A stretch of DNA of 64,000 nt from Antedon mediterranea. Taxonomy: Eukaryota > Animalia > Echinodermata. The DNA is taken from positions 27,934,912 to 27,998,911 of the forward strand of contig NC_092675.1 in the NCBI RefSeq assembly GCF_964355755.1, read 5' to 3'. This document shows positions 13,649 through 63,942 of this stretch, piece after piece. The notes beneath the pieces are model-generated. The model did not search any database. It had not been told where the DNA came from and saw only the letters and a list, made by a program, of their open reading frames with translations. Position 1 is the first letter of the stretch; the number at the start of each line of letters is the position of its first letter. The position numbers and the translations under genes are program-made.

Positions 13649-19147
<5,499 letters not shown>

Positions 19148-31729: not shown

Positions 31730-32854
31730 ATGCCAAACAACACTGTATTGTTCATGCTTTGTAGTATCGTAATATTGCTGTTTTCTGTTGTAAACTCTGT
31801 TAACGGTAGAGACAATATGTGTTGTTATCCAGTTGATAGAATTGATGCTTTTATTGGTCAAAATGTCTCCATCAGTTGCTCTATAACAATTCAACCAAGT
31901 TCATCCAACAACGTCACCATTACTGCTAAGTGGATTCACAATAAACAACGTGTCGCCAAAAGCGAGTATATACACTTACCGTTAAATAATACTGTTCATA
32001 AATTTAATATTTCACTTATTTTTACTAATTTAAGTGAATCAAACCATGGCGAATATGTATTATTTGTTACCGGCGGTACCTCGATTGAATTACTTTTCCC
32101 ATCTACCGAAATATTTGTTTGGTCACCGCCATCTGTAAAAGTATGCAACGCATCTAAATCGCATTACTCCAATAGTGATGTAGCTACATTGAATTGTGCA
32201 GTAACCTCTCCAGCTAGATATTCTTTGCATTGGTTAATTGAGCCAGAGATGCATGACAGACCATTGGTTTACACTAATAAAGATAAGGTTGCAAGTTTAA
32301 AATTCAACGTAACATCGCTGCTTGAAAAGAATGCCTTTATCTGTTTCATAAAAGGAGTGAATTCGTTAGACAGGCAAATGTTGTGTAAATTACAACTAAC
32401 ATCAACTGTGGTCAGAAACAGCCTGCGTATTGATGTTTCATCTTTGTTTGTTATTGGACAGAAGACAACGGTAAAATGCAAGTTTATTGAAAGCTTCTCT
32501 TTAAAGTTTGTTAGTGGAGGTGATGAAGTCTTTTCGAGTGTTGAAAAGGCAAACCAATATTGGATCTCAAATAATTCTGCAATAAACAAACAAATAAATA
32601 ATAATAACACAAGCACGTTGCTTATTGAGAAAGTTTCTCCTGACATGAACAACAGTGAAATTACTTGTATAGTTGACCAATGGAACATTTCAAAAGTAAT
32701 ACAAGTTTCAACAAGGTATGCAACAACTATACAACCGACACATTCCAGTATTGAGACAATCAAACTTAGAAACTACATTTTAGTTGCCGTCAGAACAAGT
32801 ATGCTAGTAGCGACTATTATAATGTTTACTTATTTTAGTGTACAAACAACTTAA
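31730..32854 (+). CDS. IgSF type I membrane protein A1: signal peptide, 3 Ig-like domains, Thr/Ser stalk, Arg-containing TM, 3-aa tail; single coding exon
   Basis: Intact 374-aa ORF with hydrophobic N-terminus; Ig motifs VSISC..AKW..SLIFTNL..GEY, ATLNC..LHW..FIC, TVKC..YW..LLIEKV..ITC; many N-x-S/T sequons; paralogous to 34763 and 62770. Confidence 0.85.
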   Translation: MPNNTVLFMLCSIVILLFSVVNSVNGRDNMCCYPVDRIDAFIGQNVSISCSITIQPSSSNNVTITAKWIHNKQRVAKSEYIHLPLNNTVHKFNISLIFTNLSESNHGEYVLFVTGGTSIELLFPSTEIFVWSPPSVKVCNASKSHYSNSDVATLNCAVTSPARYSLHWLIEPEMHDRPLVYTNKDKVASLKFNVTSLLEKNAFICFIKGVNSLDRQMLCKLQLTSTVVRNSLRIDVSSLFVIGQKTTVKCKFIESFSLKFVSGGDEVFSSVEKANQYWISNNSAINKQINNNNTSTLLIEKVSPDMNNSEITCIVDQWNISKVIQVSTRYATTIQPTHSSIETIKLRNYILVAVRTSMLVATIIMFTYFSVQTT

Positions 32855-34762
32855 ATTTAAACCTACTGCAACGTCTAGTAACTAAGTACCAAGTGCCGAT
32901 ACTTTAATTCTTTTGAAAAAATTAGACCTTCTGTAGTAAGTATGAGATGTTTTGTTTAACTGAAGTTTGACTGCGCCACTATCTCGTGTTGTTACAAACA
33001 AAGAATAATTTCAATGAGTATATTTGTTTAACTGCACCTTATTAATAAGCTGTTGGACGTTTGCTGGGTTATTGCCAACATTTTTGGTCAGCAGACAACC
33101 TAATTCTTTTTACCATTATATTGTTGTATTGACCATTCCATTACGTTTTTAAGTTTAACCGTATCCACAGCGAATGTATCAAATCGATACCCATTGTTTC
33201 ATTTAGTTTTGTTAGACCTACTTTCAATTTACATTGTAGATATTCTTATCAGATGTTAACCACTTCAGTTCGTGTGTCTGTCATTCCAAGTTTTGAATTG
33301 ACAGAAATTATTTGGAATAAAGTGAATTGAATTAAACTCTATCTATGTCCCTACATGGCATTTTCATCAAACGCAGGCATTACATAGGCTTTACAAAATA
33401 CGCAATAATGTTATTTTCTTTCTCCTTAACATATTTTCACATTGATTAATTTATAAATTTACACACACCTTGTCAACACATAAAGACAACTAATACTTTG
33501 GCAGACAGAATTGATAAAGACATGACGTTTTAATTATAACTCTGATTAGTGGGGAGGGAGAAAGTGTGGTAGGCGTAATTGTCTCTCCCTCCTCACTTAT
33601 ACAGTGAGTAAGCCTAGCATTAGAATAGTAGGCCTACTAGGACCGAGACAATATAGATTATGTTCACGAGAAACTACTTTTATTTATAAGAATTTAATGA
33701 GAAAAGGAAGTGCTGATAATGTTTAAAATAGTACTGGAATCTAGGCCTATATATCATGTTTATTTGATTCCACTAGTATGCTGTTTTACTTTCGTGAGTG
33801 ATAGCATATTCATTTATGTATTTCAAATGATAACATGAACGTTTTATAATCTCTTACAAACATAATCGTTTATCATACTTGTTTATAATAGCTATTATAT
33901 TCTTTCCTGGACTTAGTCACGTATTGATATTTAGAGAGACTTATTTCGCCTATTTAAAATATTATATAAACCATAGAAATATAATATACATAATCCTAAC
34001 AGTATCAAACAAATACATACACTATTTCTCATTTCTGAGTCAGTTTTTTTTCTTCAAATGAATACTTCATATTTTTTTAAGGCTTCATACAGTATTACAA
34101 AATTAGTAATAATGCCTATCAAAGATACGTATAGAAATAATGGACGGAGACCACAAAAAGTAAAAATGTTGCCATCATCCCTGGTTAGCCTTGAAGTGGT
34201 CCAGATTTGGGATCCTGGTCCGGATTGGCTCTAAAATGTATGGAGTAATTTGTTGCTAGCCTATATACGGTTTCAGTAGTTTAAATTTGATAAAGATCCG
34301 TCTGAATTAGTGAAATATTTTAAAAAGTAGTTCAGAGTTGGGATCCTGATCCTCTAAAATCGTTTGTTGCTATTATTATAGCCTACCTTCAATGGTTTCA
34401 ATTTGGTAAAGATCATTCTATGAAATGCCATGTGTGCCAAAATACTTATTATTTTACCAATGTTAAGTTGAAATGTAGTCAAGAACTTACGACTAACGAC
34501 TAAGTATAACGTCATAACACTGATAACGTCCTTAGTCATAATTATACTTTAAGTAGTGGACACCCGTTATCGAAATGTCCAATCAGGACCTGTCTTTGTT
34601 TTTACTTTGTCTATATAAGTGTAATCGCACAAGATAACTATAACCAATGTCACACGTAGGTCTAGTGTAGAGTATGGATATATTTGTTTCAAGCACTAAT
34701 AAGTTTTAGAAAGTGTGTTTTACACTACTGGCACATTTCATCTACAGATTTATTATTGAATT

Positions 34763-36513
34763 ATGCCAAACAACACTGTATTGTTCATACGTTGTAGTAT
34801 CGTAATATTGTTGTTTTCTGTTTTAAACCCGGTTAACGGTAGAGACAATATTTGCTGTTATCCAGTGGATAGAATCGATGCTTTTATTGGTCAAAATGTC
34901 TCCATCAGTTGCTCTATAACAATTCAACCAAGTTCATCCAACAACGTCACCATTACTGCTAAGTGGATTCACAATAAACAACGTATCGCCAAAAGCGAGT
35001 ATATACACTTACCGTTAAATTATACTGTTCATAAATTTAATATTTCACTTATTTTTACTAATTTAAGTGAATCAAACAATGGCAAATATGAATTATCTGT
35101 TACCGGTAACTCGACTGAATTACTTTTCCCACCTACCGAAATCTTTGTTTGGCCATCGCCATTTGTAGAAGTGTGTGACGCCTCTAAATCGCATTACTCC
35201 AATGGTGATGTAGCTACATTGAATTGTGCAGTAACCTCTCCAGCTAGATATTCTTTGACTTGGTTAATTGAGCCAGAGATGCATGACAGAGCATTGGTTT
35301 ACACTAATAAAGATAACGTTACAAGTTTAAAAGTCAACGTAACATCGCTGCTTGAACCGAATGTCTTTATCTGTTTCATAAAAGGAGTAAATTCGTTAGA
35401 CAGGCAAATGTTGTGTAAATTACAACTGACAGCAACTGTTGCCATAGACAACCTGCGTATTGTTTCATCTTTGATTGATATTGGGCAGAAGGCAACGTTA
35501 GAATGCAAGTTTATTGAAAGCGTCTCTTTAAAGTTTGTTGATGGAATTTCTCCAAGTGATGACTTCTTTCCAAGTGTTAAAAAGACATCCAATATTGGAT
35601 CTCAAATAATTCTGAAATAAACAAACAAATAAATAATAATAATAACACAAGCACGTTGATTATTGAGAAGGTTTCTCTTGACATGAACAACAGTGAAATT
35701 ACTTGTATAGTTGACAAATGGAACATGTCTAAGGTCATAAAAGTTAAGAAAAAAAGAAATTCATTAAAAAAAAATTTCACCAAATGAAGAGCCAACTTAA
35801 ATCTGGTTTTGATGTTATGCTATCCATTACCGTTGGTTCGCTAGTATTGACGTCTGCCATTATACTTGCATGTTGCATATACACATGATGTATGTCGGAA
35901 ACGAAATTCTGCCTTATCTCAAAGCTCAGAAAGTGTGCCAAACTCACCAGTTAATCAACACATGTCTCCAGGTGGAATCGCTACAAACCAATCAACTTTA
36001 ACCCTAAGTACATTACCATTAGAATACCATACGTTGAATGACAGTTTTGAAACTATTTATGACGAGATCAAAGATTTGATGCCAAATCGGGATTGCAGTA
36101 ACACAGTGCCGTTGCAATGCAATGAATCGGTTGAATTCCGTTTTAATCATACAGACGAGAACTCTGAAATACTTGAATTAATATCAAGTCCACAATACGC
36201 CGAAGTCAACATCGATCACGAAAACAGTGCTAAAGATACAGTGAAACAGAAAGGAGATGAAGTAACAGAGATATCTTCAATTACTTACGACCAACTGAAG
36301 ACCCATAACCCTGATGGAGATGACGATTTTACAGAGGATTCATTATATGCAATACCGAACAAGGTGAAACAGAAAGGAGATGAAGTAGACCTAACAGAGA
36401 TATCTTCAATTACTTACGATCAACTGAAGACCCATAACCCTGATGGAGATGACGATTTTACAGAGGGTCCATTATATGCAATACCAAACAAAACCAAATA
36501 TAGTTTTCGTTAA
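34763..36513 (+). pseudogene. IgSF receptor A2: 3 Ig domains, uncharged TM, long ITIM/ITSM tail; disrupted by three frameshifts
   Basis: Ectodomain aligns base by base with A1. Indels are needed at about 35588, in the A-run 35766-35774, and at about 35885 to join ORF 34763-35620, the end of D3, the TM VMLSITVGSLVLTSAIILACCIY (35814-35882) and the tail ORF 35866-36513. A splice acceptor CTACAG lies at about 34747. Confidence 0.8.
36241..36492 (+). repeat. In-frame tandem duplication (123-nt period) in the A2 cytoplasmic tail
   Basis: VKQKGDEV(DL)TEISSITYDQLKTHNPDGDDDFTE.(S/P)LYAIPNK occurs twice. Confidence 0.9.
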
Positions 36514-37280
36514 ACTTGATTCCAGCTACGATTTATAAATAGGTAATGCTCCTTGATAATACATTTGTACAGACATATTGAGAGAATGTTGACTATTATT
36601 CTTCTGTATTGTGTATTAGCATATATTAATGTTTGTAAATTTGTATTCGTTTACTGAATTTTGCTAAATTGTACACGTTTCTAAATAAAATTGATGAATT
36701 CGAATGCTCCAATGTGGTCCGTCGCAACATCTAAATTTTAACCAATATTTTAATTTTGTTTGGCGTAACTAGATTTGAAATGGACGAATCTGTGAATTTA
36801 ATTGCGTGCGCTTCCAGAATTCTTTTATAGAGGAGTGGGTCGAGAAAACGCGTCATAGTTCATTTTCTATTGGTTGTACAATTGTTCGCTTCACAAAAAG
36901 TAGAAACAATTCGAACTACAAATTTCCCTGAAGCGAAAAACTCAAGAAACTAGAATTCGTCGCAGAGCGGGATTTGAAAGATGGAAACATGAATATTCAC
37001 TGACGCTTTCAATTCGCTCAGCGGAAAATCGGCTTTAATGCTTATTTAACAACTTTATTAAAAATTTTCAAATTAACATATCATTTAAAAAGACATTGAC
37101 ATATTTTAATAATTGTTATTAATAATAAATGTTATTCTTTCAGGTGTGATCAAATAATTGGTACATATAGGCCAACAAGACGTGAATATAAGAAGAGAAA
37201 TATAATAACAAACATCATGGCAGCCGTTACTGTATTCTTACTAACGTGTTTGTACATTCCCGTAATTAGTGGATGTTCTC

Positions 37281-40200
37281 TAGTCCAGTCAATCTAATGA
37301 TATACCCACCACAAATTGCAATAGTAACAAAGCTAGTATTTTTGAATTCGATATAATTTGTAGAACGACATACTAAAAGTCACCGAAAATCCAAGCATTG
37401 GGTCAAGGGGTCAGAGGTCAATAAAGGTAATTTTATGTCAAAATTAATATGCCCCATTAATTACATATATTTAACCATTTAAAATACATTATATACAAGT
37501 GGGATTTATGTCATCCGAAAGCTTATTAAATTTCCTATTCAGTGATATCAAACTTATAGTCATAACATTTTATTTAGAATGTCAATTTTGCGAAAAAACA
37601 CAACATAATGTGTCAATTTTGGCTAAAAATGTTGTTTTCGCTGTAAACAACAATGGTATACACACAGGGATTCCCTGGGGTGAACATTTCAGTCCAACGC
37701 GATACACATGACCAGTTCAAGATGCAGATGAGTGACATCTCCGTTCCTGTTGCTTCTGGATGATCTACATTCCATTTTTTCCAGTTGGCATTTGTGTTGC
37801 CATGGTTACAGTATTTATATTGGAATGTATAAGTATTTTTTAACTAGAAATACAAAGATATTCAACAGCAGTTTGACAATGACCTCCATGTTGTATGACG
37901 TTCGGACCATCTGGGCTGGATTGTCAACAGACCTGCAGGTGATTGAAAAAGTTTCTATGAGAAGCCTCAAAGAAAACAAGAGGTTTGACAAGAAAATATA
38001 GGAATGCGTACATCCAGACCAAATCTGCGCTGAAATGTATGTAATGCCTTGTAATAGTATCAGGGCGTTACTCCAGAGCAGCAGCGGCCAACATAAGACC
38101 TTATGGCAACACGTCAGGAACACAATGGCAATTGAAAAATCCATTTGGTTACGACTCAGAGACTTCATACCATTGACACGGGAGTTACTGCAGGTGACTC
38201 GGAATATTAGCAATGTGGTATTAAGCATTGAATATTTTGGTCAGAAAGTCTTCCAATGTATTCAAGATCCTGGCAATAAAGTCATATGTGTGCATCAATC
38301 CTACAGTTCCAGAGGAGACTCGAGGTGACTTTGTTATCCACCACCACTTTTTGAAACTACCAACTTACAATACTTTCAGCTAATAAACCAACATGATGCC
38401 ACGTGGAAACAACTTCTTCTGAAAAGTCTAATACATCCAACTCACTGAATGATGTCCAGTAGGCCTATATTTTAGATGGTAGTGCTCTACTGCACAGCAT
38501 TCATATGGAATAGTGTAGAGATCTGTAAAAAATATTGCTCTGCATAGTCTTTGATAATTATGAAAGCGGCTCGTCCACCAAAGACGGCGCACATGGTAAG
38601 GCGGGTCAGGTGGTAGTGTCCCTGTACATTTTACCAGTGACATGTTCCACAAAATAGGATCACTTTCGTAACAAACAACAATTTATAAATCTTCGTAACT
38701 AGTATTTGAACAACATGGCAATGAGTGAATGCAGCTGCTGATGCAGATGTTCTTTCGGATAGTACAAAAAACCATTGAATCAGCAAACAGGAAAACAGCT
38801 GTCATTATCCGATGACACGGATCTACTAGTGCTCCTCTGCAGTCAAGCATTTAAAACATCTTGTGATATTCTTTAGACTGGAGCTGAGATGCTGGACTAT
38901 CAAACTGGTTCAAACAGTACATTTTTGAGAGACATCTGTGATAACCTTCTGTTTGCTCATGCGATACTGGTGACACAACATCCAGAGTTTTCGGAATTGG
39001 AAAACAAGTGGCTTTAAAAAAAGCTTGTCATTGCACTTATTTCTGACATTATGCTGTAGTCTTCAAATGCAAACAAGCTACAAAGGATGACATTGTGGTT
39101 GCTAGAGAAAATGGTTCAGTGTGTCTGTACAATGGACTACCTGTACAACGTGGAATGCCTTTGACTCCATCCCATCTACAAGTACAACCTTGCATATCGC
39201 CAACTTCATAATCGTACCACAACCAAGGTACTTAACATCAGGTTCAAGTTCAAGTTATCTTTTAGCAATGGAGTGGGGTTGATATGTGTACCGAGGATTG
39301 GGGATGGAAGATCAGATGATGGAAACATGGTTCCTCTACACACAGACTTAAAGCCAGAGCCTGAGTATCTCCTTGAAGCATTCAGGGGTAACTAGAACTA
39401 CATGTGGTGAATGCAATGGCATTGCACTGTACTAATACCCGAACAAGAAAGTGATACTGATGACATATAAGTTGTGAGTCCTAGTTCAAGAATTTAAGAG
39501 TCGGATGGCAACTGGCAAAAACGAATTTCTTTTCCAGTTTGTTCTACATGCCGGGCATTGAAAGCGACGCCCATGAGGCATGAGCTCGAAATCACTGAAC
39601 AAGGCATGGTTAACATTTTTTAGAATAGCTCTACTTTTTTCTAGAGTGTGCATGTCACAGAAGGAAGACAAGCTACGAAGTTGACAACCTATTAATTATA
39701 AATAAACAACTTTGTAGTGAGTTTCTCTCTTTGACCCTAAGACTAAAAAACCAGCATATAAAGGAAAAAAGTTAAAACATTCTCAATAAAGGAATTATAA
39801 AAAACCATGAGAATTACTTTATTGACATTAAAATGGTTCAGCTTCCTTAACAGATAAAGTCTCTGGTGTCCTTTCTTTACTATTGCCTCTGTATTTAATT
39901 CCCAGCTGAGATTGTCCTCAAATATAGTACCTAGGTATTTAAAGGAATGGACAATATCGCTGGTTCGTCATTTGTGGGGGATACCAGAGGGCTGCGTCCT
40001 TTCTCCTTCCTAAAATCTACAATTATCTCCTTGGTTTTGGTGACATTGAGTTCCAAGTAGGAGTTTCCACAAAATTGGATAAAACCATCTAATGCTGAAC
40101 CATGACCGTCCTGTGAATTTTGAAGGAGAGACAGCAAGACAGTGTCGTCAGCAAATTTAAAAAGATTGTCCTGTTTGCTCCGACAGTCATCCGTGTATAT

Positions 40201-41259
40201 AATATACAAGAGAGGAGAGAAGACGCAACCCTGCGAAGATAAAATACTTCTCATTACGTACATTCGTTGATACTAAAATTATCAAAAATCTATCTATAGT
40301 AAATCATGAGTTGATTCCAAATTATCAAGACTCATTAATTAATCATCAATAGTACATACCGCCGCTAATGAATTTCAATTTTCTTCTAGCTAGTATAATT
40401 TTTCCTATTTCATGACGATACAATAGGTACAAGAAAAACATTATTTGCACCAAATACTTCCAAAATATAAATATAATATATATAAACATAATTTAGTTTT
40501 ACGCTATTTTAAGAACATTTGAGTTTTTGTAAAAGGTCAATGACCTTTTGACCTCTAGTTACGTATAACTGTTATTAATTGTTTTTTAATGTATATTATT
40601 AGTAGGATATATATACTCTACACATTGGTACTAAAGCTATTTAGATATGATTATAAAACAATGGATTATAGGCATAAACGCTACCCCCTACCCCAAAATT
40701 GTTTACATTACATTTGATCAAGAATCAATTTCAATAAGAATAGTACATCATTACTTTTAAAATTCTTCTAGTTAACATCATGTTTGCTATTTTATATATC
40801 GATAGGTACAGATAAAACACAATTTTGATTAAATGCATATACAATTATGGCACAATATTACAGTTAATCATTTTTTTAAGAAAAAAAATGAGTTTTTGTA
40901 AAAGGTCAATAACCTTTTGACCTCTAGTTATATAAATAAATGTTGTATTTTGTTTTTGTAAATTGCATATTAGAAAAAAATGTATATATTCTACACATTG
41001 ATATCAAGATTATTGAGATTGGATTATAAAACCACAAGTTATGGGCATAAATGTTACCCCCTACCCCAAAATATTTATGGAATAAAATCACTATATAGTT
41101 GTTGAGATTACGTAAAAAATAATGTGTTCCAATGCTTCAATTTTTGGTGACTTTTAATATGTCATTATAAACTACATTTGGAATGAAAAAATTAATGTTT
41201 CGTTACTATTCCAATTTGTGGTGGGTTTACCTCTAAATATCACTAGATTGACTGGACTA
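37281..41259 (+). mobile_element. Decayed Academ-like (XPG-nuclease-encoding) DNA transposon
   Basis: About 120-bp TIRs starting TAGTCCAGTCAATCTA(A/G)TGATAT; TAG..CTA ends; flanks TCTC/CCTC. Frameshifted internal peptides WAGLSTDL.VIE..MRSLK, LDGSALLH, IVFDNY...STKD, ADADVL, DDTDLLVLL, LFAHAILG.DTTSRVFGIGK (XPG/FEN1 H2TH-like), DWGWK. Superfamily assigned from recalled hallmarks, not a search. Confidence 0.75.
39486..40263 (-). mobile_element. Decayed LINE 3' fragment (Rex1/Babar-like RT) nested in the Academ-like element
   Basis: QGCVFSPLLY..YTDD, KFADDTVL, LNVTKTKEIIVDFRK and C-terminal SFLPVAIRLLN, with stops and frameshifts between them. Confidence 0.8.
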
Positions 41260-43220
41260 CCTCCTGATTTCAACAATACTGTAGTAGAAGGTAATCTCTT
41301 ATCCATGCACTGCGTGTTTCGCTGTCACAAGAATAGAGATGTATTGGGTCTTTGGACTAGAGAGGACTCTAAGGTTATGAATACGGAACGGATAAAGGTA
41401 ACAACAATTACTCAAAGTGCACGCGGCAATGTAGTAAGAACATCATTGACAATTGGGGATACTAGATTAGACGACGAGGGTAAATATCGATGCCTTTTAA
41501 AAGATCTTACTTTAGATGTAAACATAGGGACGTCATCCGGATTTCAAGTACATGTGCTGAAGCCACCAATCTTTCCTATCATCATCCACCAGTCTTGGAA
41601 ATAAGGTAATGCTAGCAACCTGCGTCACGGAGAAGACTGTGCCCAAACCTCAGCTTACTTGGCTCGATCAAACGGAGCCGCATTATGCTGACAATGCAAC
41701 ACACATAATGATACAGAAAATATCTAAAGTTGATGAGGAAGTCGTTTGCATTATGCGTTGGTATAATGAAGCACCGCGAGTTCACACCTTTAGATCTGGT
41801 ACGGGACAAGATAACACAGATGGGTATAGGCCTACCTCAGATAATGATAGCAAGCAACTTCAATCCTCATTGGCACCAGTGACGTCAGCATGGGAACCTG
41901 AAAATGACAAGCCAGAAAAACCCATCAACCTTAACATAGTAATTTTTATAATCATAAGTTTCCTCATATTATTTACAGCTTTTAGTATTACATGTATTTG
42001 TATTCTTTGTGGCATGTGGCGCCAAAATAAAGAAACTGACATAGAATATGACGAAGTGTATGAAATGAATTTTGAAACCGTATCTATGCCCCAATTATCC
42101 TGTTCCACCATGGATTCACACATTTAGATTTGGTACGGGACAGGTTAAGACAGATGGGTATACCACAGATGATGATGATAACAAGCAACTTAGCCTAAAT
42201 CTTCAATGGCACCACTGACATCAGCATGGAAACCTGAAAAAAGTGACAAGCCAGAAAAACTTAGCAGCCGTGAAATAGTAATTTTTACATTCATAACTTT
42301 ACTCATAATATTGCTTGCATGTTTTTGTATAATATCTAGTGGGATTCTTGTTTGCGCAATGTGTCGCAAAAGATGTTGTAAACAAAAAGGCAATGGGGAG
42401 TCACGGGAACCTCTTAATGGTTACATTGTTGAGCGTAAAGATAATAAAGAATTTGAAATAGAAGGGAAAATTTATGAATTAGTTTTAAAAAATGATAGTG
42501 TGTAATATATCTGCCAGAAATATTGGTCTCAACTGCGTAAAGCAAAGTCATGAGATATTAAATAATTTACGTTACAAACATAATAAATGATGTTAATATA
42601 ACGATAATATTATGAATAATAACTACTAACTTAATTTCGATGAAATAATGTGTCTAAATATAAGAATATCAAACCAGATTAATTGTAAATCCTTGAATAT
42701 AATTGAAACAAGTAGTTACTATATATTCGTTTAAATTTTCTGTTGATTACGATTACTCTTTACTGTTCACACCCGAGTCTAATATTCCAATAACATTGTT
42801 ATAACAAAAAGAAATTGCCCTTTAAATCTTATGTAATAGTAATGGCATATGTTTGATTTAATAGTTTTATCATAGTTTTAAGATTATCACAAACATGGGC
42901 CTATATTAGGTCCATAATGCAAACATGGGGGAAGTACAAAAGTATGATGGTTGTTAAAAGTTGAAATTTGAGAATGTTAATGATTTAGATACGGGTCCCA
43001 GTCAAAAAAGGTCCCGGCGCTGGTTTTATATTGTATATATATACATACAATATTTTACTTTTTGTATATATAAAAATATGCGACAAATTGAACTGTTGTC
43101 GACGGCGACGTTACAGTATTTGTCTGCATTGTTAACATTATTATTAGTATATGCATTGTACAGTATTATCTGCATTGTATTATATATACAAAGATACAAT
43201 TTTTCTAGAATTTTTTTTTT

Positions 43221-46730: not shown

Positions 46731-48926
46731 TAATGCCGTGATAGATGTTCGCACAGGATCATCGGTGCTGTATCTGTATCATCTGTCATCAGCTGTATCA
46801 TAGGCAAATTCTGTGATACAGCCTGTGTTTCTCACGTGGTGCCTGTATCATGAAAATCTGAGGTACAAGGGGTTAGGTTAGTGTCTATAACTGGTGTTAA
46901 GTGAAACAAATGAGATGCTGTATCACTGAATTTCCCTATGATACTCTGGAGAACCTTAGTACAGAGCAAGACACTGACAGCACAATGATCCAACAAAAAG
47001 TAATATAAAGGTCTAGCAAATGCTCCTTCTAAAAATGTACCGCAAGCTTGAAGATAACATGACATTATTGTATACTAAGAATAGCACTCGTTTCAAAATT
47101 TTCATCGTCATCATTTAGGCTAGTTAAAATCACACCACACTCTTGGTACAAAAAATATTTCTTAACCGTTATCATTCGTTTTTTGAAATAAAAAAATAGG
47201 GCCAATTTAAAAAGTCATTTACATTAAAATTAGTAGTTCCTCGTAAACTATTTGTAATCCATTGGCTAGCAGCCAATTTGACCATTTTTTGCTTTAAATT
47301 AAAATTTTTTCCTGTAAATACATTTTTTTTTCGATCCAATTTTTTGTCAAAGTGGATAAATATTATGTTACATTAAAATGGAATATTTTAAAAAAAATGT
47401 ATTAAGAATAATTTTTTCAGGGGGACAATACATAAGTGGACGTCAACGTACGTGTCATATTATTGATGTTGTGATTCTCTGTGTTTAGATAAGGATGCTT
47501 TAGACCAGGTCCGCCTTATATTATTAGCCAATCAAAATCGTATAAATTTTGGAGGGAAAATGTTATCCTCCTCTGAAGCCTAAAATTTGCATGTCCAGTA
47601 TAAAAGTGGAATGTAATAGATATTAAAGGAAGAAGAGAGAATAAGATCAGAGTAGATAAACGGAAAGATGATAAAGAAAATAAGGCTTGACTGGTAGTGG
47701 TAGAAAGATGTATTAATTGAGTTACAAGGAATAAAAGTTCTAGTTGAGTTAAATATACTTTTTGTATGAGTTATCATTCAGTGACAGCTGTGTACGTCGC
47801 GTGGAAATATATACGCCTGAGAAAGCTCGGAACCAACTAATATATTCACTACAGTACAGAACAAGCGGTACGAGTAATTTCGCCCTTTTTTAAATAGTAA
47901 TGTTTAGGCCTACACGTCCTTAAATTTAATTCCAAAAACTAATTAATAATCTCTTATTTATTAAGTAAATTCGTAAGCATGTATAGTTTTTAGTAATCAA
48001 ACGTTTATTTATTTAGTCTGAGTCAGAATTATTGTCTTATATAGAATTTGTTTCTAATTATTATTGTATAGGCCTAAGCCTAGATTTAGCAGAAAAGGGG
48101 CAGGTCCATTGCAAACACAAGAAAGATTAATTTAAAGGAATTTGGCCAAGCCAGGTAAGGTGAATAATTACAAAGAAATCAACCGGGAAAAAAATTGTGA
48201 ATGGACATAGGCCTGGACCTATTAGAGGAAGGGTGGATTTAGAATGTGATAACAAGATGAAATAGAAGCAAAAGGGAGAAAAGAAACAAACTGGAAAAGG
48301 AAAGAAACGAAAGACCGAAGGTATTAATGAACATTTGTGGAAATTCCTAATAAATATCTGTATTCTGTTTAAAGTACAGTAATAATGTTTGGTGGATTGT
48401 CAAAACAATCTTTAATTTCAACAGATATTCCAGATCTTTTGTAAATGAGTATGAAACAACGAAAGGATGTGCGCAAACACAATCTATGAATGTTTGGAAC
48501 ATTTTTATAAAAAGTAGTATCGTTTTGTAAGCTCTTCGATGTTGTTTCCTTTCCTTACTACTCTTTAAAAGTTGTGACCGGGTGTTGCTGTTACGTAACA
48601 GAATGTTTCGTTCCAAGGTGTTTATAATCTTGAGTAGTAGCTCTTTCAGTAATAATGTACATTGCCAAATTCTTTTTTACCGTTCGGTATTTGATTTTTG
48701 ACTGACTTTATAAGATTGTTTTATTTCTTTCCTTCCCCATAATTAAAACAATTTACCACTTTATTTAACTTTAAATATTTTGTAGGGTTTTTTTCTTCTA
48801 GAGAAAAATGTAGCAAAGTAAGAAAGAAAAGTAAGTAATACTGGATGAATTGAAAGAACTTGTCAAAGGCAAAGTGTTAGATGCACTATTGTTCTTTATG
48901 TTGTATACCGTTATATAAAGTTATTC

Positions 48927-49500
48927 ACTGCCCTCTATACATGTACTGACACGTTTAATGAGGTTAAAAGGCTAGTAATTGGTAACATTTATTTACAAAT
49001 TTGATTAGTCTAATATAAAATGTTCTATACTGCCCTCTATACATGTACTGACACGTTTAATGAGGTTAAAAGGCTAGTAATTGGTAACATTTATTTACAA
49101 ATTTGATTAGTCTAATATAAAATGTTCTATACTGCCCTCTATACATGTACTGACACGTTTAATGAGGTTAAAAGGCTAGTAATTGGTAACATTTATTTAC
49201 AAATTTGATTAGTCTAATATAAAATGTTCTATACTGCCCTCTATGCATGTACTGACATGTTTAATGAAGTAAAAAGGCTAATAATTGGTAACATTTATTT
49301 ACAAATTTGATTAGTCTAATATAAAATGTTGTATACTGCCCTCTACACATGTACTGACACGTTTAATGAGGTTAAAAGGCTAATAATTGGTAACATTTAT
49401 TTACAAATTTGATTAGTCCATGGAGGAAAATAAATAATTTATTTTTTCCTCCATGATTAGTCTAATAATAGCACGTTGTATATTGCCCTCTATGCACGTA
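48927..49500. repeat. Homogeneous 102-bp minisatellite, about 5 copies
   Basis: ACTGCCCTCTA units start at 48927, 49029, 49131, 49233, 49335; homologous to the PUM3 exon 4/intron 4 repeat. Confidence 0.9.
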
Positions 49501-50914
49501 GCACAATGATGTTAAAGTCTGAATATTCTACGTACTATTTATGAGGCTAAATGCTTTAAAGCATTGGTTGCAATTGATTATTTGCAAGTACAGTAACTGT
49601 AAATATTAATATATGAATACTCCCTCTATAATGAATTGTTATCTATAAATTGATACTGTGTATTGTTATTACAATGTATTAATAATATTTTGTTTTATTT
49701 CATATCATTTTCAGTAAAAGAATAATTTCTTAGATCATATTCTAAAATATGTCGAAATACAAATATGCTAAATTTTTCGTGAAGCAAATGTTACCGTACC
49801 ATACGGAACAAAGGAACAATGCAATCATTATAATGACCACATTTCACGGTAGCGTCTGAAGTAATTAAGATGGCATACAATAACCATGCAAATTTAAGAG
49901 TTCTACGGTCCTTCATTTGCTCTATTTAATTCATTTTTCCAGTAATTCCAAGAGTGGTTAAAAACAAACCGGAAAAATTATTTGAATATTGTATTCATAA
50001 GTACCCTTAACTACATTTAATACAGTGTAAAGCAGGCAACATTTTAATGCAAAAGGACTGACAAAGGCGAATATATATTTCTTACGGATATACTCAATGA
50101 TTTAATAAACATAATTAACTCAAAGTAATTTTTATTAATATTCATTTTTCATGTTTTTGGGGGACAATTATACATTTTTAATAGGTGACCACAACTCAAC
50201 TAATCTCTTACCATGCTCATCAATTTTTACGATGCACCAGTTTGTTGTTTTTGTTGACCTTATCTTCTATTTTAAAAACTGACCAGATATTACTGATAAA
50301 GATACCGAAACATTTCTGTAATGATAGTTTCAAGTATTTATAACCACAGTTAGTACATTTGATGTTTAGAAAACAGCGATTAATTGTTCTTTTCTTTTGA
50401 AAAACTTATGAAATCAAAGAAAACCGAAAATGTTCTATAGTCGTTGTTATGGGTATCTCTAACTATTTGCTTTATAATGACATATTTTAATATGTTTTTC
50501 ATGTGAAAACTAAAGTTATTGGAGCATAATTATGATAATTATTATTATAATTGCACATTATAACTACAATAACTTTATCTGGTGTAATGTTTAATTTTAG
50601 ATTTACAGGAACTTTTGGTTTTGTTTGATATTAATACTGTACATACTTTTAGGAAATATATAATCTATCTATAAATTTACCATAGTGTGTACTAATAATT
50701 AGATGGCGTGACAGTCAAAGATATTAAATTTAAGTTTTCTTTTCTCACTAAATTTCAGTTTTTGCTTTCATTTCTCATAATTCATCAATTGTCTGTGTCT
50801 AAATAAATACAGAAATTTAAATGTTTGACCAAAATAAATTGTACCAGCTCTTTTTAGTACCCTCTGACAACCATTTTATTTATAATTATTCTTACGTAAT
50901 TGGAATTTACTTAA

Positions 50915-51463
50915 AGATGTATTGTCCCTTGAAACACAAAAAATGAAAAAAAAAAATTCTAAATTTAAATTGGCCATATCAAAGTAATATTAAAGTTATT
51001 CACTTTAAGTCGAAAATTCGAGCCAAAAACAACAAGTTTACGTAATTAACAGGTAAATTAATTTGATTACATTTCGTCTGGAAAATCGTCACGAGCAAAA
51101 GTAAACAAAGATTTCAAATCATTAGTATGCATTATGCATGATGCTACTTAGGATTGTTTACAACTTGTCGCAGTTAGTTGAGAAGGTTTTTTCACACAGA
51201 TCGCGAAGAAGTTTTATGAATATGCATACAGAGTAGCCAAACAAGCGCGTTGCATTATGAGATATGTTTTGATCGAAAATTTTGACTGGAAGTCAAAGTT
51301 ATTTTTTTAACAAAAAAACGTCTGTATTTTGGTTAAATTATTTTTTTTCCGACTAATTTTTTGTGAAAGTTAATAACTATTATGATACTTCAAAATGACC
51401 CACTTTTTTCGAAATATTAAAAAAAAATTTTTTTTTTGAATTAGTCAAAGGGACAATACATCT
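50915..51463. mobile_element. Non-autonomous Kolobok-like MITE inside the PUM3 pseudogene
   Basis: 16-bp TIR AGATGTATTGTCCCTT; TTAA TSD (50911-50914, 51464-51467); the paralogous empty TTAA site is at 24592-24595. Confidence 0.85.
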
Positions 51464-52255
51464 TTAATAGAACAGCAACATGATAAATGTTTTGTATTTG
51501 TTGAATGCGGAGAATATATTCATAAGTTAAAATAATGACTATTAAAAGATTTGAAAATGCATTATTTCTGTATTATATACTTTTTTTTTCTATTTTTAAA
51601 GGACATGATAGAATCCATCGTCGTCGTAGTTCAAATTCTTCACACACACGATGGTGCTCGTGTTGTTATGCAATGTATTTATTTGGCATGGCACAGCAAA
51701 AGTATGAAATATATAAATAATACAGACACATAGATTAGATCTAAAGCAAGTTTTCCATTGGGCCAATGAAACATGATTCCTGCATCGCAAAAAATAGATG
51801 GGATCTATCTCAAATAGGCTTTAGACCAAGGTTGTACAGAAATCAAACAAACATTACAATTAAATTGCCTAATTTAGCTCATGAAAGTTGCACAAATACA
51901 ATATAATTGCAAGTTTGCTGGTGATTTTGTTAAGTAAATCCCAGCAACAATCTGAATTCTAATTTATATCATATCCTCTGCTTAATTTATAAAATAAAGC
52001 ATATATGCATTTAATTGTTATTAATTGCTTTTTAAAATCTTTCAAGACGTATTTTTCCAAGATATGTCGTGAGGAGTATTGTCATTGGGTCATGTAGGCA
52101 TTGTTTGATTCAGTTGACGATACAAAGCTATTGGCAAAGATTATTCTGACGGTATGTCTTATTAACATTAATTGAAATATGTCAGAAGTCAAAATGATAA
52201 GTAGCAGTGAGAGAGATTAACTGAAAAATTTCTTTTAGATACTAATAGTGAATGG

Positions 52256-52847
52256 GTGTCAAACATTCACTAAACAAACATATAGCATTACATGTTAGAT
52301 TAGACTACTTTTATGCAACACAATACTCGTTTTTATTTGCTTATAAAAGTAATTACTGTAGATAGTAAGTAATTACTGATTAAATTGCGTCAGTGGTGGC
52401 GCCAGGTTTTGCCCGATACATATTATTTGAACACATTTCACTTATGTCGATAGATAGATAGATAAATATTTAGCTATCTATCTATTTATCTATATGTATC
52501 AGTATTTATGACATAATTAAATAATTCAGGGCGGCAGATGGTAAATTCTCTTTGAGGCAAAGGTTGCACTTTTTGTTTGCGCTACCAGGCCTATATGTTT
52601 TAGTAGATGACAAGATGCGTCACGAGATTGAATATTACTAATTATATTAACTTTATGCAGCACAATGATGTTATTATCTACTAATAAGAAATAAGCTTCC
52701 ATAAAATTGTCTAAAGTCCAACTAACATGAACTTACTATCTACAGTATTTTATAAGTAAATAGAAGCAAGCATTGTGTTGCATAAAAGTTGTCTGAAGTT
52801 CAATCTAACATGTACTGCTATTGTTTGTTTAGTGGATGTTTGGCACG
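52256..52847. mobile_element. Degenerate MITE with about 115-bp TIRs
   Basis: GTGTCAAACATTCACTAAACAAACA...TACTGTAGATAGTAAGT vs ACTTACTATCTACAGTA...TGTTTGTTTAGTGGATGTTTGGCAC. Confidence 0.6.
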
Positions 52848-54490
52848 AGGGGAGAGTGTGCCCAATTAAGGATTTTCAACTTTAAAAGCGACTAAAACTA
52901 CCCTCAAATTAATGTCTAATATCATCTGGAGTTTCTGGAGGCTCCACCCATGTAGCGTAATAGGCGAGGGAACAGGTGTCCCCCGACGGATTTTACCGGG
53001 CTGGAAAATTTGTACCAGACTGGATATAGAAGAAAAAAAAGAGTTGGGAAAGACAGGGGAAGGAAATAAAAAATGGTTTATTGTAGATCAAACTTGTACA
53101 TACTTGTATCGATAGTATTACATCAATGACACTTTCTAGATATGACAACGTTAGCATAAATTCAGTATTTTAAAAGGAAAATTCCCGGAAGCTATCATCG
53201 AAAACCCACGCAAATACTCTGTATTTTTATTTATACCTGTAGTTGGTTGCGACGTATCTAAAATCAGGCCTATTTTCCATCCCAATATAACCTGACATTT
53301 TTAAAGTATAAATAGTGCATTCCGGGGACCTCAGCTCTATTTTTTTAAATGTTCTCACCTCAGCCAATAAATATTACTTACTTACTAGCCCCAACCACGA
53401 TGGAGCTAAATTCTTGTAGAGTGGTTTTTTTTTTTGTTCGTTTTGGGCAGTTTCCTACACCAAGTCATAGATTAATAACCCACAAATTATTATCTTTGCA
53501 CACCCTGACCCAAGACCTGTTATGCGGCTGGCTCCGCTTATTCAGTTTTTTGTAAGATGTTGATTGATAAAGTTGGTACAGATAAGATATCAGCATGGAA
53601 CACTATAAACAGAGGATCTTTTATACTTTTTAGGCGAGTAAAATTCATTCGTTTTCAGAGCTACTGTATTTGTTTCTTTGTATATAAATTTAAATTTATG
53701 GGCTGATCACAATTAGCAACGACTGTGACAAAGGTTACATTCATACCTGACGTGATGTTGTTTGAATAAAATAGATAATCACAGAATAAATAACAGAACG
53801 TTTTATACCAGGCTGACATGCAAGTAACATGTAGGTGAGAGAAATTGTTAACTAACAATTCAAAGGTACAATTTAGACACCATCACGCATGACCTCAATT
53901 CAGTGGCCACTCATAATTTGTCCTACATGTTGTCAATATTTACTATAGAGGCCTATATATATGTTGTACAGCTTAATTGTCAATCCTTTCCCGCAGGTCG
54001 GCCGTACGCATGGTAAGTTAAGGATTTTTTTAGTAAATTTGTAAACATAGGCTTGTAATACATATAATCTGTTCAATGCGAACTGTTGATCAGATCCTGC
54101 AATCAGAATTAACACCCAAAACATCTGCGCTACATCTTTTCTTCTGACGTATTGTATTTAGCAAGTGCATTTGTACTCAAACCCACGATATGTCGGTCTT
54201 TATAAAAATAATCTTGATAAATTATATACGATAAAGTTCAAATAATTAATTTGTATTTAAAATTGCACTAAGCAGGACTATTTAAGTAGGAGTTTCTACT
54301 GTTGTTTAATTCCATTATTTTTACGTTTGTTTTTAAGTTTATTTACTGCAATAATTCAAACTCAACCGGATTCACTATTCAATGAGCGAATCTCAAATAT
54401 CATACACACCAGATAATATAGTTTATTTTAATTCGTCAGTAATAGCGATTTTTGTGGCAGGTCCTTAACTCGAACTTTCTCATTTGATAC

Positions 54491-57400: not shown

Positions 57401-57684
57401 TTAAGAATTTCTTGGGTGTTTGTCGTAATTTTTCCATTTGGTTTAAGTACTGACGTAATATGTTTTTTCTTAGCCTTGTTTTTTTCTAAACCTAAAAAGA
57501 ACTTAGTATTTCTTTCTCCTTTTTCAGTCCATTCTACTCGAGCCCTAATTTGTGCTCCTTTTGCTTCAGATGTATAAATTTGGTTTAGCTCGTTTAATTT
57601 GTTATTTAATATCTTTTCTGACTTTTGATCATAAGCACCATCAAGCTCATCGTTTAACTTATACACTTCTTTAATTAATGTATT
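54491..57684 (-). mobile_element. 5'-truncated non-LTR retrotransposon (Tx1/L1 clade), recent insertion
   Basis: Poly(A) seen as T11 at 54491-54501, with minus-strand AATAAA at 54525-54530; exact 16-18 bp TSD CTTTCTCATTTGATAC(TT) at 54475-54492 and 57685-57702. Confidence 0.9.
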
Positions 57685-57693
57685 CTTTCTCAT
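54823..57693 (-). CDS. LINE ORF2 reverse transcriptase (956 aa, lacks the N-terminal endonuclease)
   Basis: GERNTKFFLGLEK, KSPGTDGLTVEFY, NWRPITLLNIDYKI, DFEKAFDS, GIRQGCPLS, QLADDT, KFLGI and C-terminal CxxC...HxxxxC; uninterrupted. Confidence 0.92.
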   Translation of the reverse strand: MRKNTLIKEVYKLNDELDGAYDQKSEKILNNKLNELNQIYTSEAKGAQIRARVEWTEKGERNTKFFLGLEKNKAKKKHITSVLKPNGKITTNTQEILNEQVRFFKELYKETPSNQENINSYFGSTKINTLSFEEKQKCEGMLTNYECKMALLHMKLNKSPGTDGLTVEFYRTFWDSLGNLLCDSVNFSFLNKKLTSSQRKGIISLLYKKGEREKLHNWRPITLLNIDYKIIAQVLDNRLHSVISSIINNDQKGYIKGRFSGESIRLIEDLLNYSDVHKQEGALIFIDFEKAFDSVGRYFMFKTLEKFGFGIQFIQWVKVMYNDTESYIVNNGWMSEGVLMNRGIRQGCPLSALLFILVVEVMATNIRNNHLCKGIKLPSVTNENVNVKIAQLADDTVIFAKNEKAIQSYFNEIDCFCEMSGLMLNKSKTRGMWIGCDKEKISNYCNITFNQEPIKFLGIYIGYDKDICNTKNWYEKIENLKKILKTWEKRKISFFGKITVIKTLALSKLIYNASVTDLPKSIIPEINKILYNFLWSGNKEKIKRNTLIQNIENSGIKMIDFNSMIESLKLGWVKRLLSPDPGKWKCIPLYNLYPIDYTLSMTEANFEKHNALKYVNTFYINLLKACIRFSNIYTKKPQCICEIKTQRLWENIYVMHNKKSLFCKSWVKSGIKTVGDIMDKSRFKHINEITPLLKRRENAFLKYMALIDAIPRNWKVIVVEKPYCYIHKEVDTIDKNVNVTSNYTTVKQFYSTFTDVAYKACIPKAQDKWENQLQNCFIDWNLCWKNKVKSMLHIKRVAFFNFKLLHKILPTRCKLKLWNLSNSNYCEYCNEEVENEKHMLFTCKEVKHCWVKCCAMLKTCFAFTQEVTWEKILLGKYDVKINEIFSILTFCVYKNKVKHRLGLVKKCPWLMFTAELEDIINCEFLINKEKAKKMWSDMDRNNLARYKINVYKIDIR

Positions 57694-58005
57694 TTGATAC
57701 TTACTACAAATGTTAACTTACTATTAGGCCTATTGATTTTATAGTCCCATAGGCTATCCAAACCAATGATTTCTCGCGTTCTCTCTGGATCCGTTCAATT
57801 AAGGAAAATAGGTCTGCTTGCTAATTAGTCATAAGTACGGTATTGTAGTTTTGAGAAAATGATAATAATTGTCATGTTTTGATTCCAAAATATTCAATTC
57901 AAATAATTTTTTTAATGTACTTTCTTTTTAGACCGTCCGATCCTGCATACGCACAAAAATGAAAAAAATGAGGAAGAATTAGTAAAACGGACGAAATTGG
58001 CCAAT

Positions 58006-58842
58006 ATGAAAAGAATAATATTTATGACACTATATTTGTCAATTTCCTTAGTTGCGGGATGCTATCTATATTCACCTCTCAATGTTAACAAAACTGTCAT
58101 AGAAGGTGAACACGTCTTCATGGGTTGTATTTTTCACTGTGATGGGAATAGAAAGTATATTGGACGGTGGACAAGAGCCCATGTAAACGTTATAGATACG
58201 GAACGGATGAATGTAGCCACACGTACCCGCCGAAATAACAGCGAAATAATAGTGAGTACGTCATTCAAAATTAATGACGCGAAAATAAAAGACGAAGGTG
58301 AATACCGATGTATTTTGATAGACCTCAGTTTAAATGCAATTGTAGGAACCTCCGATGGCTGTCACGTGCATGTGCTACAGTCACCAAGCGTATCATTTCC
58401 GGTCATTACATCCTCTAATCTTCAAAATGGCATAATGTCAGCAACTTGCATTACGGAGAAGGTTGTACCCAAGCCACACCTCTATTGGCTTCATCAAACG
58501 GAGACGCTCTATGCTGATAACGGAACACATATTATGATACAGACGATATCTGAAGTTGATAAAAAAGTAATTTGCATTATGCTTTGGTATACCGAAGAAC
58601 CACGTGTCCGTATTTATACGCCTAGATCTGATACAGGGCAGGATAAAACAGATAGCTATACCTCAGAATATGATAACATGCAGCTTCAATCCTCAGTGGC
58701 ACCTGGAAATGATGACAACAAGTTAAAAACACACAGTTCATACGTAATAATTACCGTAATAATTTTTTCTCTAATAATAATTATTATTATGCCTAAGTAT
58801 TTGTTGGCAAATAAGAAATCAGCAATTAGATGCACAACATGA
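58006..58842 (+). CDS. IgSF type I membrane protein B2 (signal peptide, V-set, C2-like, stalk, TM); single coding exon, possible frameshift in the TM
   Basis: ATG at 58006 (MKRIIFMTLYLSISLVAG); FMGC..GRW..FKINDAKIKDEGEYRC; ATCITEKVVPKPHLYW..VIC; TM YVIITVIIFSLIIIII; upstream acceptor TTTTTAG at about 57931. Confidence 0.82.
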   Translation: MKRIIFMTLYLSISLVAGCYLYSPLNVNKTVIEGEHVFMGCIFHCDGNRKYIGRWTRAHVNVIDTERMNVATRTRRNNSEIIVSTSFKINDAKIKDEGEYRCILIDLSLNAIVGTSDGCHVHVLQSPSVSFPVITSSNLQNGIMSATCITEKVVPKPHLYWLHQTETLYADNGTHIMIQTISEVDKKVICIMLWYTEEPRVRIYTPRSDTGQDKTDSYTSEYDNMQLQSSVAPGNDDNKLKTHSSYVIITVIIFSLIIIIIMPKYLLANKKSAIRCTT

Positions 58843-60252: not shown

Positions 60253-60330
60253 ACCGTATTTATTCGAATAAACGCCTCCCTCGGATAAACGCCTTCAAAT
60301 GGCATCATTTTGAATAAACGCCGCCCTCTG
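60253..60330. mobile_element. Probable Tc1/mariner-pogo-type transposon end
   Basis: TA|CCGTATTTATTCGAATAAACGCC with repeated ATAAACGCC motifs; the matching end was not convincingly found. Confidence 0.35.
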
Positions 60331-62769: not shown

Positions 62770-63942
62770 ATGGCATGTGCATTTTCAATCTCTCATCTCA
62801 TCGTTCATTTATTTGTTTTATCAATTGGCGAAGGCAGCTTCAACATTCACTGTAATCCAGAAGATAGAATGGATTCTTTTATTGGTGAAAAAGCCTACTT
62901 CAGTTGTCAGATCAATCGTCTAATTATTTCAACGCAAAACGCAAACTTCACTGTTAAGTGGATTCACAATGGGTATAATCTAGTGAAAACCGAACATGTA
63001 CCGGTAAACACAACTGGGTATACCATTCATGTTTCACTAAGCTTTAATAATTTAAGTACATCTCATACCGGTGAATATAGAGTATCGGTGATGGATAATA
63101 TTGATAAGAATTTCCTTTCTGATCCTATCGAACTCTTTGTTTGGCCACCGCCATTCGTAAAACTTTGCAACGCTTCTAGATCGCATTACTCTAGTGGTGA
63201 AGTGGCTACATTGAATTGTGTGGTAACCTCTCCAGCTAGATACTCGTTGTATTGGTCAATTGAACCAGAAATGCGGGATGTTGCTTATGTGAACACCACT
63301 GATTTTAATGGTAAAACGAAGAATGTAAGTATGATGTTCAACGTTACGTTGTCAGACCAAAATACATTTAGCTGTTTTATAAAAGGACTAAATTCGTTTG
63401 AAAGGAAGCTTTTGTGTATATTAAAACCATTATTCGAATTTTTCGCCATAGATAGCCTTCAGATTCTGTCTTCTACATTTATTCTTGGTAAGAATGCTCA
63501 GTTGGAATGCAAGTATACTGAAATAATGACTGTACATATTGTTGAGGCGTTTGCTAAAAGAGATGATATATTACCAGACGCGCAAAATGTATATTGGGTC
63601 TCAAACAACTCTGCAGTAAACAAACAAATAGAAAAGGGTAATGGCACAGGATTGCTGACATTGAAAAACATTTCTTCTGACATCAACTACAGTAAAATTA
63701 CTTGTATAGTTGGCCAATGGAACATTTCTACTATCATACAAGTTGTAACAGGATATGCAACAACAACTGTACAACTGACAACTCTATCAAATACACATAC
63801 CAGTATTGAGACAATTACAAATAAAAACGAAACATACTTATACATTTTAATTGTGGTTAGAACAAATATATTATTCGTGGCGAGTATAACGATTATCTAT
63901 TTTCTGTACACACAAATTAAACGTACATACTACAACGTCTAA
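62770..63942 (+). CDS. IgSF type I membrane protein A3: signal peptide, 3 Ig-like domains, Thr-rich stalk, Arg-containing TM, 10-aa tail ending YYNV; single coding exon
   Basis: Intact 390-aa ORF; shares DR.D.FIG, KWIHN, SHYS.G.VATLNC.VTSPARYSL.W.IEPEM and ITCIV.QWNIS with A1/A2. Confidence 0.87.
   Translation: MACAFSISHLIVHLFVLSIGEGSFNIHCNPEDRMDSFIGEKAYFSCQINRLIISTQNANFTVKWIHNGYNLVKTEHVPVNTTGYTIHVSLSFNNLSTSHTGEYRVSVMDNIDKNFLSDPIELFVWPPPFVKLCNASRSHYSSGEVATLNCVVTSPARYSLYWSIEPEMRDVAYVNTTDFNGKTKNVSMMFNVTLSDQNTFSCFIKGLNSFERKLLCILKPLFEFFAIDSLQILSSTFILGKNAQLECKYTEIMTVHIVEAFAKRDDILPDAQNVYWVSNNSAVNKQIEKGNGTGLLTLKNISSDINYSKITCIVGQWNISTIIQVVTGYATTTVQLTTLSNTHTSIETITNKNETYLYILIVVRTNILFVASITIIYFLYTQIKRTYYNV

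Follow-up and report, generated by a model that had tools for sequence, protein, structure and literature searches.

The window analyzed here is a stretch of 64,000 nucleotides from the crinoid Antedon mediterranea (contig NC_092675.1, positions 27,934,912 to 27,998,911), with a GC content of about 32%. It contains a cluster of genes for membrane proteins of the immunoglobulin (Ig) superfamily (IgSF), which an earlier note, made from the DNA letters alone, had described as a candidate system of paired activating and inhibitory receptors in an invertebrate. Five such genes are present, as that note had claimed, all on the plus strand and each consisting of one exon, between positions 31730 and 63942 (about 32 kb). 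They belong to two families, A with three Ig-like domains and B with a V and a C2 domain. The genes and the features within them are as follows (TM, transmembrane segment; ORF, open reading frame; ITIM and ITSM, immunoreceptor tyrosine-based inhibitory and switch motifs).

31730..32854, plus strand: A1, a single-exon ORF of 374 amino acids with a signal peptide, three Ig-like domains, a Thr/Ser stalk and an Arg-bearing TM.
31721..32707, plus strand: a tract homogenised between A1 and A2 (34754-35745 in the latter), starting just before the ATG and finishing with domain 3, so that it covers the ectodomain only.
34763..36513, plus strand: A2, a pseudogene with three Ig-like domains, an uncharged TM (about 35814-35882) and a 208-amino-acid tail.
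36019..36069, plus strand: the proximal block of the A2 tail, with LEYHTL (ITIM consensus) and TIYDEI (ITSM consensus).
36190..36491, plus strand: the distal part of the A2 tail, with QYAEV followed by a tandem duplication (36241-36362 and 36364-36491).
37217..42505, plus strand: B1, a pseudogene with a signal peptide (37217-37282) and a V domain (41260-41580).
37283..41257, no strand assigned: a DNA transposon of 3,975 bp, bearing terminal inverted repeats and flanked on either side by TA.
58006..58842, plus strand: B2, an intact single-exon ORF of 278 amino acids with a signal peptide, a V domain, a short C2 domain and an uncharged TM.
62770..63942, plus strand: A3, an intact single-exon ORF of 390 amino acids with three Ig-like domains and an Arg-bearing TM.

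In PMC3533184, paired receptors are defined at the sequence level by one member with Arg or Lys in the TM and a short tail and another with an ITIM-bearing tail, in a cluster and with related ectodomains. At the functional level, the definition asks for a charged TM that pairs with an ITAM adaptor and for members that give opposite outputs on overlapping immune cells. The five genes here lie within 32 kb, and A1, A3, and B2 are each a single uninterrupted ORF from signal peptide to tail. The pseudogenes, chimerism, and transposons that the earlier note had reported in the cluster are all borne out below.

The short-tailed form of family A is represented by A3 and A1. The A3 protein carries 13 N-glycosylation sequons and a TM arginine (Arg364, codon at 63859), followed by a 10-amino-acid tail with the C terminus KRTYYNV; the TM arginine of A1 is Arg355 (codon at 32792), and the two share a VRT context. 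The short tail with a TM arginine is therefore intact in A3, whereas the tail of A1 has been clipped, relative to A3, by a +1 frameshift located where the TM ends; directly 3' of the A1 stop, its ancestral tail end persists. The earlier description of both genes as having an Arg-containing TM and almost no tail thus stands for the arginine in both, but the near absence of a tail in A1 is the result of this frameshift. Contigs from the same sample (runs X1 and X3, which are from one sample that is probably the source of the window) show 0 differences from the window over 32648-34906. A contig of run X8 matches 30 of 30 letters of the A3 stalk; the RNA status of that run is a guess, and its contigs, among which are matches to A3 and to a long-tail paralog but also repeats, were not used as evidence.

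Domains 1 and 2 of family A match Pfam Ig models (whole A3 to Ig_3 at E=1e-9, single domains more weakly). Domain 3 is weakly supported, by a Cys pair 63 to 65 residues apart and a match to PF22009 (E=3e-4), and gave no match against the PDB. AlphaFold2 confidence was too low for use (predicted local distance difference test of 29.8 for A3 and 33.2 for domain 3), which we attribute to there being too few relatives. Domain 1 (e.g., 31808-32128) lacks the F-strand cysteine and has a conserved cysteine near its start, and domain 2 has four conserved cysteines.

A2 encodes the second module, an uncharged TM followed by a long tail with tyrosine motifs, and it is broken by four frameshifts (near 35585, 35768, 35791, and 35886). 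A same-sample contig is identical to the window, with 0 differences, over 35686-36072 and so covers the last three of these breaks, while the break near 35585 lies outside its coverage. Assembly error as the cause of the breaks in A2, and likewise in B1, is excluded wherever such contigs cover them. Rescue by splicing was also considered and rejected, as all 17 of the 17 single GT-AG introns that would restore the frame skip the TM. A2 is unable to produce its tail in this haplotype.

A1 and A2 carry a recently homogenised ectodomain on unrelated stalk and TM ends, which is a mark of paired receptors. The A1/A2 tract aligns by blastn at 90.7% over 999 columns, and 92.5% of the aligned bases are identical between the ATG and the point where domain 3 ends, with 0.085 synonymous substitutions per synonymous site (dS). 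The likeness is confined to this part, for the upstream flanks are about 70% identical and the stalk and TM are at the level of shuffled sequence. A1 and A3 show the reverse pattern, with an ectodomain that is 72% identical (dS 0.67) and a stalk, TM, and 3' flank that are 79% identical. Because A1 resembles A2 in the ectodomain only and A3 at its 3' end, A1 is an A2-type ectodomain on an A3-type anchor. A related organism (organism B, known from runs X5 and X6 on two samples that belong to one study) has a similar mosaic, a contig in which the end of an A2-type domain 3 runs into a stalk of A1 type. With single-exon genes, one crossover just after domain 3 would suffice to swap the modules. 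At the amino acid level the ectodomains of A1 and A2 are 84% identical and those of A1 and A3 are 49% identical. They are thus related, as expected of a paired family, but the "same" three-Ig ectodomain of the earlier note fits A1 and A2 and is too strong for A1 and A3. Both the A1/A2 tract and the mosaic contig are of the kind known from the KLR and PIR paired receptors (PMC3210942) and from Siglec-11/16 (PMC5701461), in which only the ligand-binding part is homogenised.

Ectodomain conversion bears on what kind of proteins these are. Fast-evolving recognition or adhesion outside immunity (in gametes, neurons, or skeleton-forming or regenerating cells), with the tail motifs serving endocytosis or cytoskeletal adaptors, appears quite unlikely to us. 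The neighbors of these proteins in a protein atlas do include MCAM and BCAM; YxxP and YxxΦ motifs serve endocytosis or cytoskeletal adaptors, and the YNV at the C terminus of A3 is a possible PDZ-binding end. However, clustering of the birth-and-death type together with conversion restricted to the ectodomain, between genes with different tails, is typical for immune receptors. Adhesion genes, moreover, are mostly conserved across species, whereas relatives of this family were undetected in the protein searches described below.

Substitution patterns argue in addition that the cluster is more than debris. The ratio of nonsynonymous to synonymous rates (dN/dS) between the old paralogs is below 1 (0.29 to 0.74 by region; 0.54 for the A1/A3 ectodomain and 0.29 to 0.45 for B1/B2), which shows purifying selection on them. 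The outer domain, D1, is more diverged than D2 (40% versus 61% identity). Decaying Ig copies that arose by retroposition or from viruses, functionless at present, would account for the absence of introns from all the genes, for two dead genes out of five and a third that is clipped, and for weak viral look-alikes in the atlas and Pfam (Marek glycoprotein C, poxvirus). This reading seems very improbable, being disfavored by the purifying selection and also by two intact ORFs, by the conservation of cysteines and signal peptides, by frames that stay open in a second organism, and by the absence of relatives from viral contigs.

The tail of A2 holds three matches to the ITIM consensus and one to that of the ITSM. 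Each copy of the distal duplication contains ITYDQL (ITIM consensus) and LYAIP (YxxP). When the 43-amino-acid duplication is counted once, there are three motifs in about 165 amino acids, for which composition shuffles give P = 0.004. The window is AT-rich, however, and its random ORFs yield 0.86 motifs of this kind per 166 amino acids, so that the excess of tyrosine motifs is modest. The note had described an uncharged TM and an ITIM/ITSM tail of about 200 amino acids; the TM, the 208-residue tail, and the motifs are there, but the gene is broken and its proximal motif pair has a second reading. LEYHTL and TIYDEI together form a canonical ITAM (an immunoreceptor tyrosine-based activation motif), YxxL-x7-YxxI, at 36025-36069 (shuffle P = 0.010 to 0.017), the consensus being that used in a paper on Hydractinia Alr (bioRxiv 10.1101/2022.03.04.482883). 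As the first ITIM and the ITSM form this ITAM, an inhibitory label for the A2 tail is unproven. The IYDE core is preserved in the paralog contigs observed, and one diverged paralog has an ITIM-like SNYNE(L) at the position of ITYDQL. The A2-type tail is probably a real tyrosine-signaling module, although of uncertain sign.

The ITAM raises an alternative in which the wiring is reversed or cooperative, the long tails being activating or dual through their own ITAM and the short forms being decoys or ligand-binding subunits; under such an arrangement, an A gene and a B gene might work as a pair and be passed on together, like the fester-family and FcoR genes of Botryllus. We consider this unlikely. 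On its side are the canonical ITAM itself (P about 0.01), a same-sample contig of 2,632 nucleotides that repeats the A2-B1 order on the same strand, and the Botryllus FF/FcoR genes, which according to PMC12582321 are encoded as pairs and switch between ITIM and hemITAM motifs. Opposing it, the distal ITIM-consensus sites occur twice and the SNYNE(L) of the diverged paralog sits at the same place, the first ITAM tyrosine is gone from a second long-tail lineage, and a TM arginine would be superfluous in a decoy.

Long-tail forms with an open frame were found outside the window's A2. A 366-nucleotide contig of organism B covers 35710-36072 and has five gap letters exactly at the three A2 breaks in that interval; with its listed differences, of which 18 of the 22 substitutions were applied, the frame runs open from domain 3 into the tail by way of the stalk and TM, and this form is present in both samples of organism B. 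Another organism B contig lacks a net 7 bases at the TM/tail junction and keeps the frame. In run X3, a contig with 144 letters from domain 3 to the tail, compared with 141 in A2, has a length that keeps the frame; it shares variants with the organism B contig that has the 7-base loss, and its best reading is a second long-tail gene. Other contigs run into different stalks and tails, and all 14 translated loose ends (of 22 listed and 15 further ones) are free of stops for about 10 codons. At position 35716, in domain 3, the contigs differing from the window number 7 in X3, 9 in X5, and 9 in X6, counts that include alleles and overlaps and do not represent copy number. Family A extends beyond the members in this window. 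The 2,632-nucleotide contig, which comes from X3, has a B-type gene after a piece of a long-tail gene, both on one strand; the transposon is apparently absent from this other locus.

The earlier note had made its reading depend on an intact ITIM-bearing member in some haplotype. Frame-open forms do occur in a relative and in a paralog, so the refuting case, in which every long-tail member has lost its frame, does not apply, although these forms are partial contigs. Taken together, the sequence features that PMC3533184 lists appear to be present at this locus except for the cytoplasmic ITIM, for which consensus motifs are there while the gene is broken in the window, relatives are frame-open over the part covered, and an ITAM overlaps.

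Our favored proposal, held with modest confidence, is that these genes act as a paired-receptor system in immune or self/non-self recognition. Two modules, homogenisation of A1 and A2 limited to the ectodomain, members in two organisms, and gene death by frameshift and transposon are observed directly. In the proposed mechanism, one ligand-binding ectodomain, kept alike by conversion, would be wired either to a tail that recruits SH2 proteins or to an Arg-bearing TM that needs a partner. The long tail would be phosphorylated on tyrosine and recruit SH2 proteins: SHP-type phosphatases would dock at the distal ITYDQL sites, and Syk-type or other SH2 proteins at the proximal ITAM or at a single IYDEI site. 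The Arg-bearing TM would require a partner with an acidic TM residue for surface expression and signaling. Conversion would hold both modules to the same ligand, and pressure from pathogens or non-self would drive the turnover of genes.

Several observations weigh against this proposal. Both genes of the window with tyrosine motifs, A2 and B1, are dead, the number of contigs covering an entire long-tail gene is 0, and the long-tail contig of organism B may conceal a hidden stop. The A2 tail bears an ITAM besides its ITIM-like sites, and the first ITAM tyrosine is shifted or lost in the second long-tail lineage. The TM arginine is known from two genes only, in which it lies 7 to 9 residues into the C-terminal hydrophobic stretch; NxxR at the start of the TM, the motif of FcRγ-binding receptors in PMC2413239, was sought in A1 and A3 and is absent. 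No Lys or Arg follows the TM of A1, which could, in the absence of such a basic residue, be GPI (glycosylphosphatidylinositol) linked or damaged. Finally, the A1/A2 dN/dS of 0.92 fits relaxation in a pseudogene equally well as diversifying selection and is ambiguous because A2 is dead. The paired-receptor reading of the earlier note is supported in part: the two-module design is real, and the frame-open forms and, independently, the ectodomain-restricted homogenisation speak for it, but the sign of the modules is unproven, given an ITAM beside the ITIM-like sites.

Searches of protein collections placed the family apart from known receptors. An exact look-up of A1, A3 (with two starts), and B2 found 0 of the 4 in protein collections. 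The search for A3 homologs gave no homology to LILR, PIR, KIR, or CHIR beyond generic Ig (0 of 1,738 candidates), and a profile search of 1.84 billion representatives returned 10 matches, every one of which the stretch count marks as a multi-Ig repeat protein (Pfam was used to check 5). The best PDB match had an E value of 0.007. Among pattern matches, 0 of 32 in viral contigs and 0 of 118 in metagenome contigs were confirmed as relatives. The top protein-atlas neighbor of both A3 and B2 falls in the same 93-member cluster, whose commonest phylum is Echinodermata. Because a sequence link to the vertebrate families is absent, independent origin seems more likely than shared ancestry with them.

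The vertebrate paired receptors (LILRA/LILRB, PIR-A/B, KIR, Siglec-11/16, and Xenopus XFL) are, like this family, clustered type I Ig receptors with pseudogenes, and they share with family A the opposition of a tyrosine-motif tail with uncharged TM to a short tail with Arg-bearing TM, as well as ectodomain-restricted conversion. Their only sequence link is the generic Ig fold, however; family A has one exon, no NxxR, no F-strand cysteine in domain 1, and an ITAM added to its long tail. Among invertebrates, the Hydractinia Alr genes form a cluster of multidomain IgSF membrane proteins with pseudogenes and ITAM/ITIM tails, but they are cnidarian and are split into separate exons for every Ig domain, spacer, and TM, in contrast to the single ORFs of A1, A3, and B2. 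In the available Alr text, "charged" refers twice to an Ig salt bridge and never to a TM residue. Botryllus Fester/FcoR, likewise from an invertebrate deuterostome, has tails that mix ITIM, hemITAM, and core tyrosine motifs, and its two families are inherited as neighboring pairs with intergenic recombination. FcoR has an Ig-Sushi-Ig-Ig architecture, whereas Pfam gave no Sushi match for the family A and B proteins, and the word "charged" is absent from the available text of PMC12582321; the allorecognition function of the Botryllus genes has been tested. At allorecognition loci such as Alr and fuhc, fusion or rejection is predicted by allelic polymorphism of an extreme degree; the present stretch was found in one DNA sample of its organism. 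Ig receptors with ITAM/ITIM tails are already on record for Hydractinia, Botryllus, oyster, and amphioxus, and earlier work has noted invertebrate pairing.

Among the titles listed, a full-text literature search covering few subscription papers found no echinoderm family of this kind and no charged-TM activating Ig receptor in an invertebrate; for charged TMs this negative excludes the Alr and FcoR supplements, which may show TM residues. The novelty would lie in the arm with a charged TM, in an echinoderm host, and in genes built as one exon. The sea urchin immune-repertoire papers of 2006 reportedly mention V-C1-TM Ig genes in a small cluster. Echinoderm immunity is mostly known through expanded pattern-recognition families. 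The terms ITIM, ITAM, and IgSF are absent from a 2026 review of sea cucumber immunity (PMC13673367).

A charged-TM, adaptor-dependent arm has so far been described in vertebrate receptors, and the locus makes it a directly testable question whether signaling by a charged TM residue together with a separate adaptor also exists outside the vertebrates. It is possible, if doubtful, that crinoids independently evolved a full paired-receptor system, adaptor-dependent charged-TM arm included, from single-exon Ig genes that swap their 3' ends to switch sign. If so, echinoderms would hold an unrecognized signaling adaptor with an acidic TM residue, pairs of A and B genes might encode a linked receptor and partner, and paired-receptor logic would have arisen again in a nonchordate deuterostome. 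As the genes are apparently missing from protein collections, similar single-exon families may be overlooked elsewhere.

For family B, Pfam recognizes the Ig fold in the V and C2 domains. In B1 the transposon, which contains a nested reverse transcriptase fragment and is repetitive in the sequencing runs examined, sits immediately 3' of the signal peptide, and the signal peptide and V domain are in frame with each other despite the 3,975-bp insertion. A frameshift near 41575-41590 is followed by a short C2 domain, a TM, and a tail with IEYDEV that stops at 42127, and a duplicated stalk-TM-tail extends the 3' end to 42505. Same-sample contigs match 41235-42700 with 0 differences, including the frameshift. 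The case for IEYDEV as a meaningful ITIM is weak, for it is present in 9% of shuffles and is not retained in the duplicated tail; the earlier assignment of V and C2 domains to family B stands. The B2 tail, of about 16 amino acids, has no ITIM. Weak matches to VNAR, PD-L1, CD80, and ICOS-L recall proteins of the B7/CD80/PD-L1/nectin type, which like family B combine a V domain with a CD80-like C2 domain; the E values are those of a generic V domain, family B is single-exon with a very short C2, and orthology is unsupported by these matches. Profile comparisons also leave kinship between families A and B unsupported (probability of 2% for D1 of family A against the V domain of family B, and of 0.3% for D3 against D2).

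The surroundings of the cluster consist of genes with recognizable relatives and of repeats:

about 1-10760, plus strand: a DOCK7-like gene with ordinary introns.
18321-18569, minus strand: an adenylate-kinase-like exon, head-to-head with PUM3.
19148-30498, plus strand: the PUM3 gene, with ordinary introns.
48759..53649, plus strand: a degenerate partial duplicate of PUM3, inside the Ig cluster.

An 81-amino-acid exon of PUM3 is 100% identical to PUM3 of Antedon mediterranea and 95% identical to that of Anneissia japonica, so that the invertebrate host proposed from the letters is a crinoid, a feather star of the genus Antedon or something very near to it. The DOCK7 exon search gave a single match, to a brittle star, at 54%, and the adenylate-kinase-like exon was recognized from its ORF. 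These three framework genes could be used to place the cluster in other echinoderms. The Ig cluster begins 1.2 kb beyond the end of PUM3, and the PUM3 duplicate within it is a mark of segmental duplication. A tandem repeat of 102 bp in that duplicate (48810-49421) has a related repeat in an intron of the intact PUM3 gene (21766-22485).

Just upstream of B2 lies a retroelement ORF of the long interspersed nuclear element (LINE) type (54823-57717, minus strand, 963 amino acids; reverse transcriptase E=1e-36, plus zf-RVT), which lacks an endonuclease match and is probably 5'-truncated. A lone 5S rRNA-like sequence at 43221-43341 (plus strand; 49.2 bits against a gathering score of 38) is a pseudogene or the head of a short interspersed nuclear element. 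A large palindrome at 44488-46731, whose arms measure about 970 bp and are 94% identical, resembles a foldback-type element, and a GCGCAATT-rich array of direct and inverted repeats at 17212-18098, whose outer arms of 50 bp are perfect, resembles a miniature inverted-repeat transposable element.

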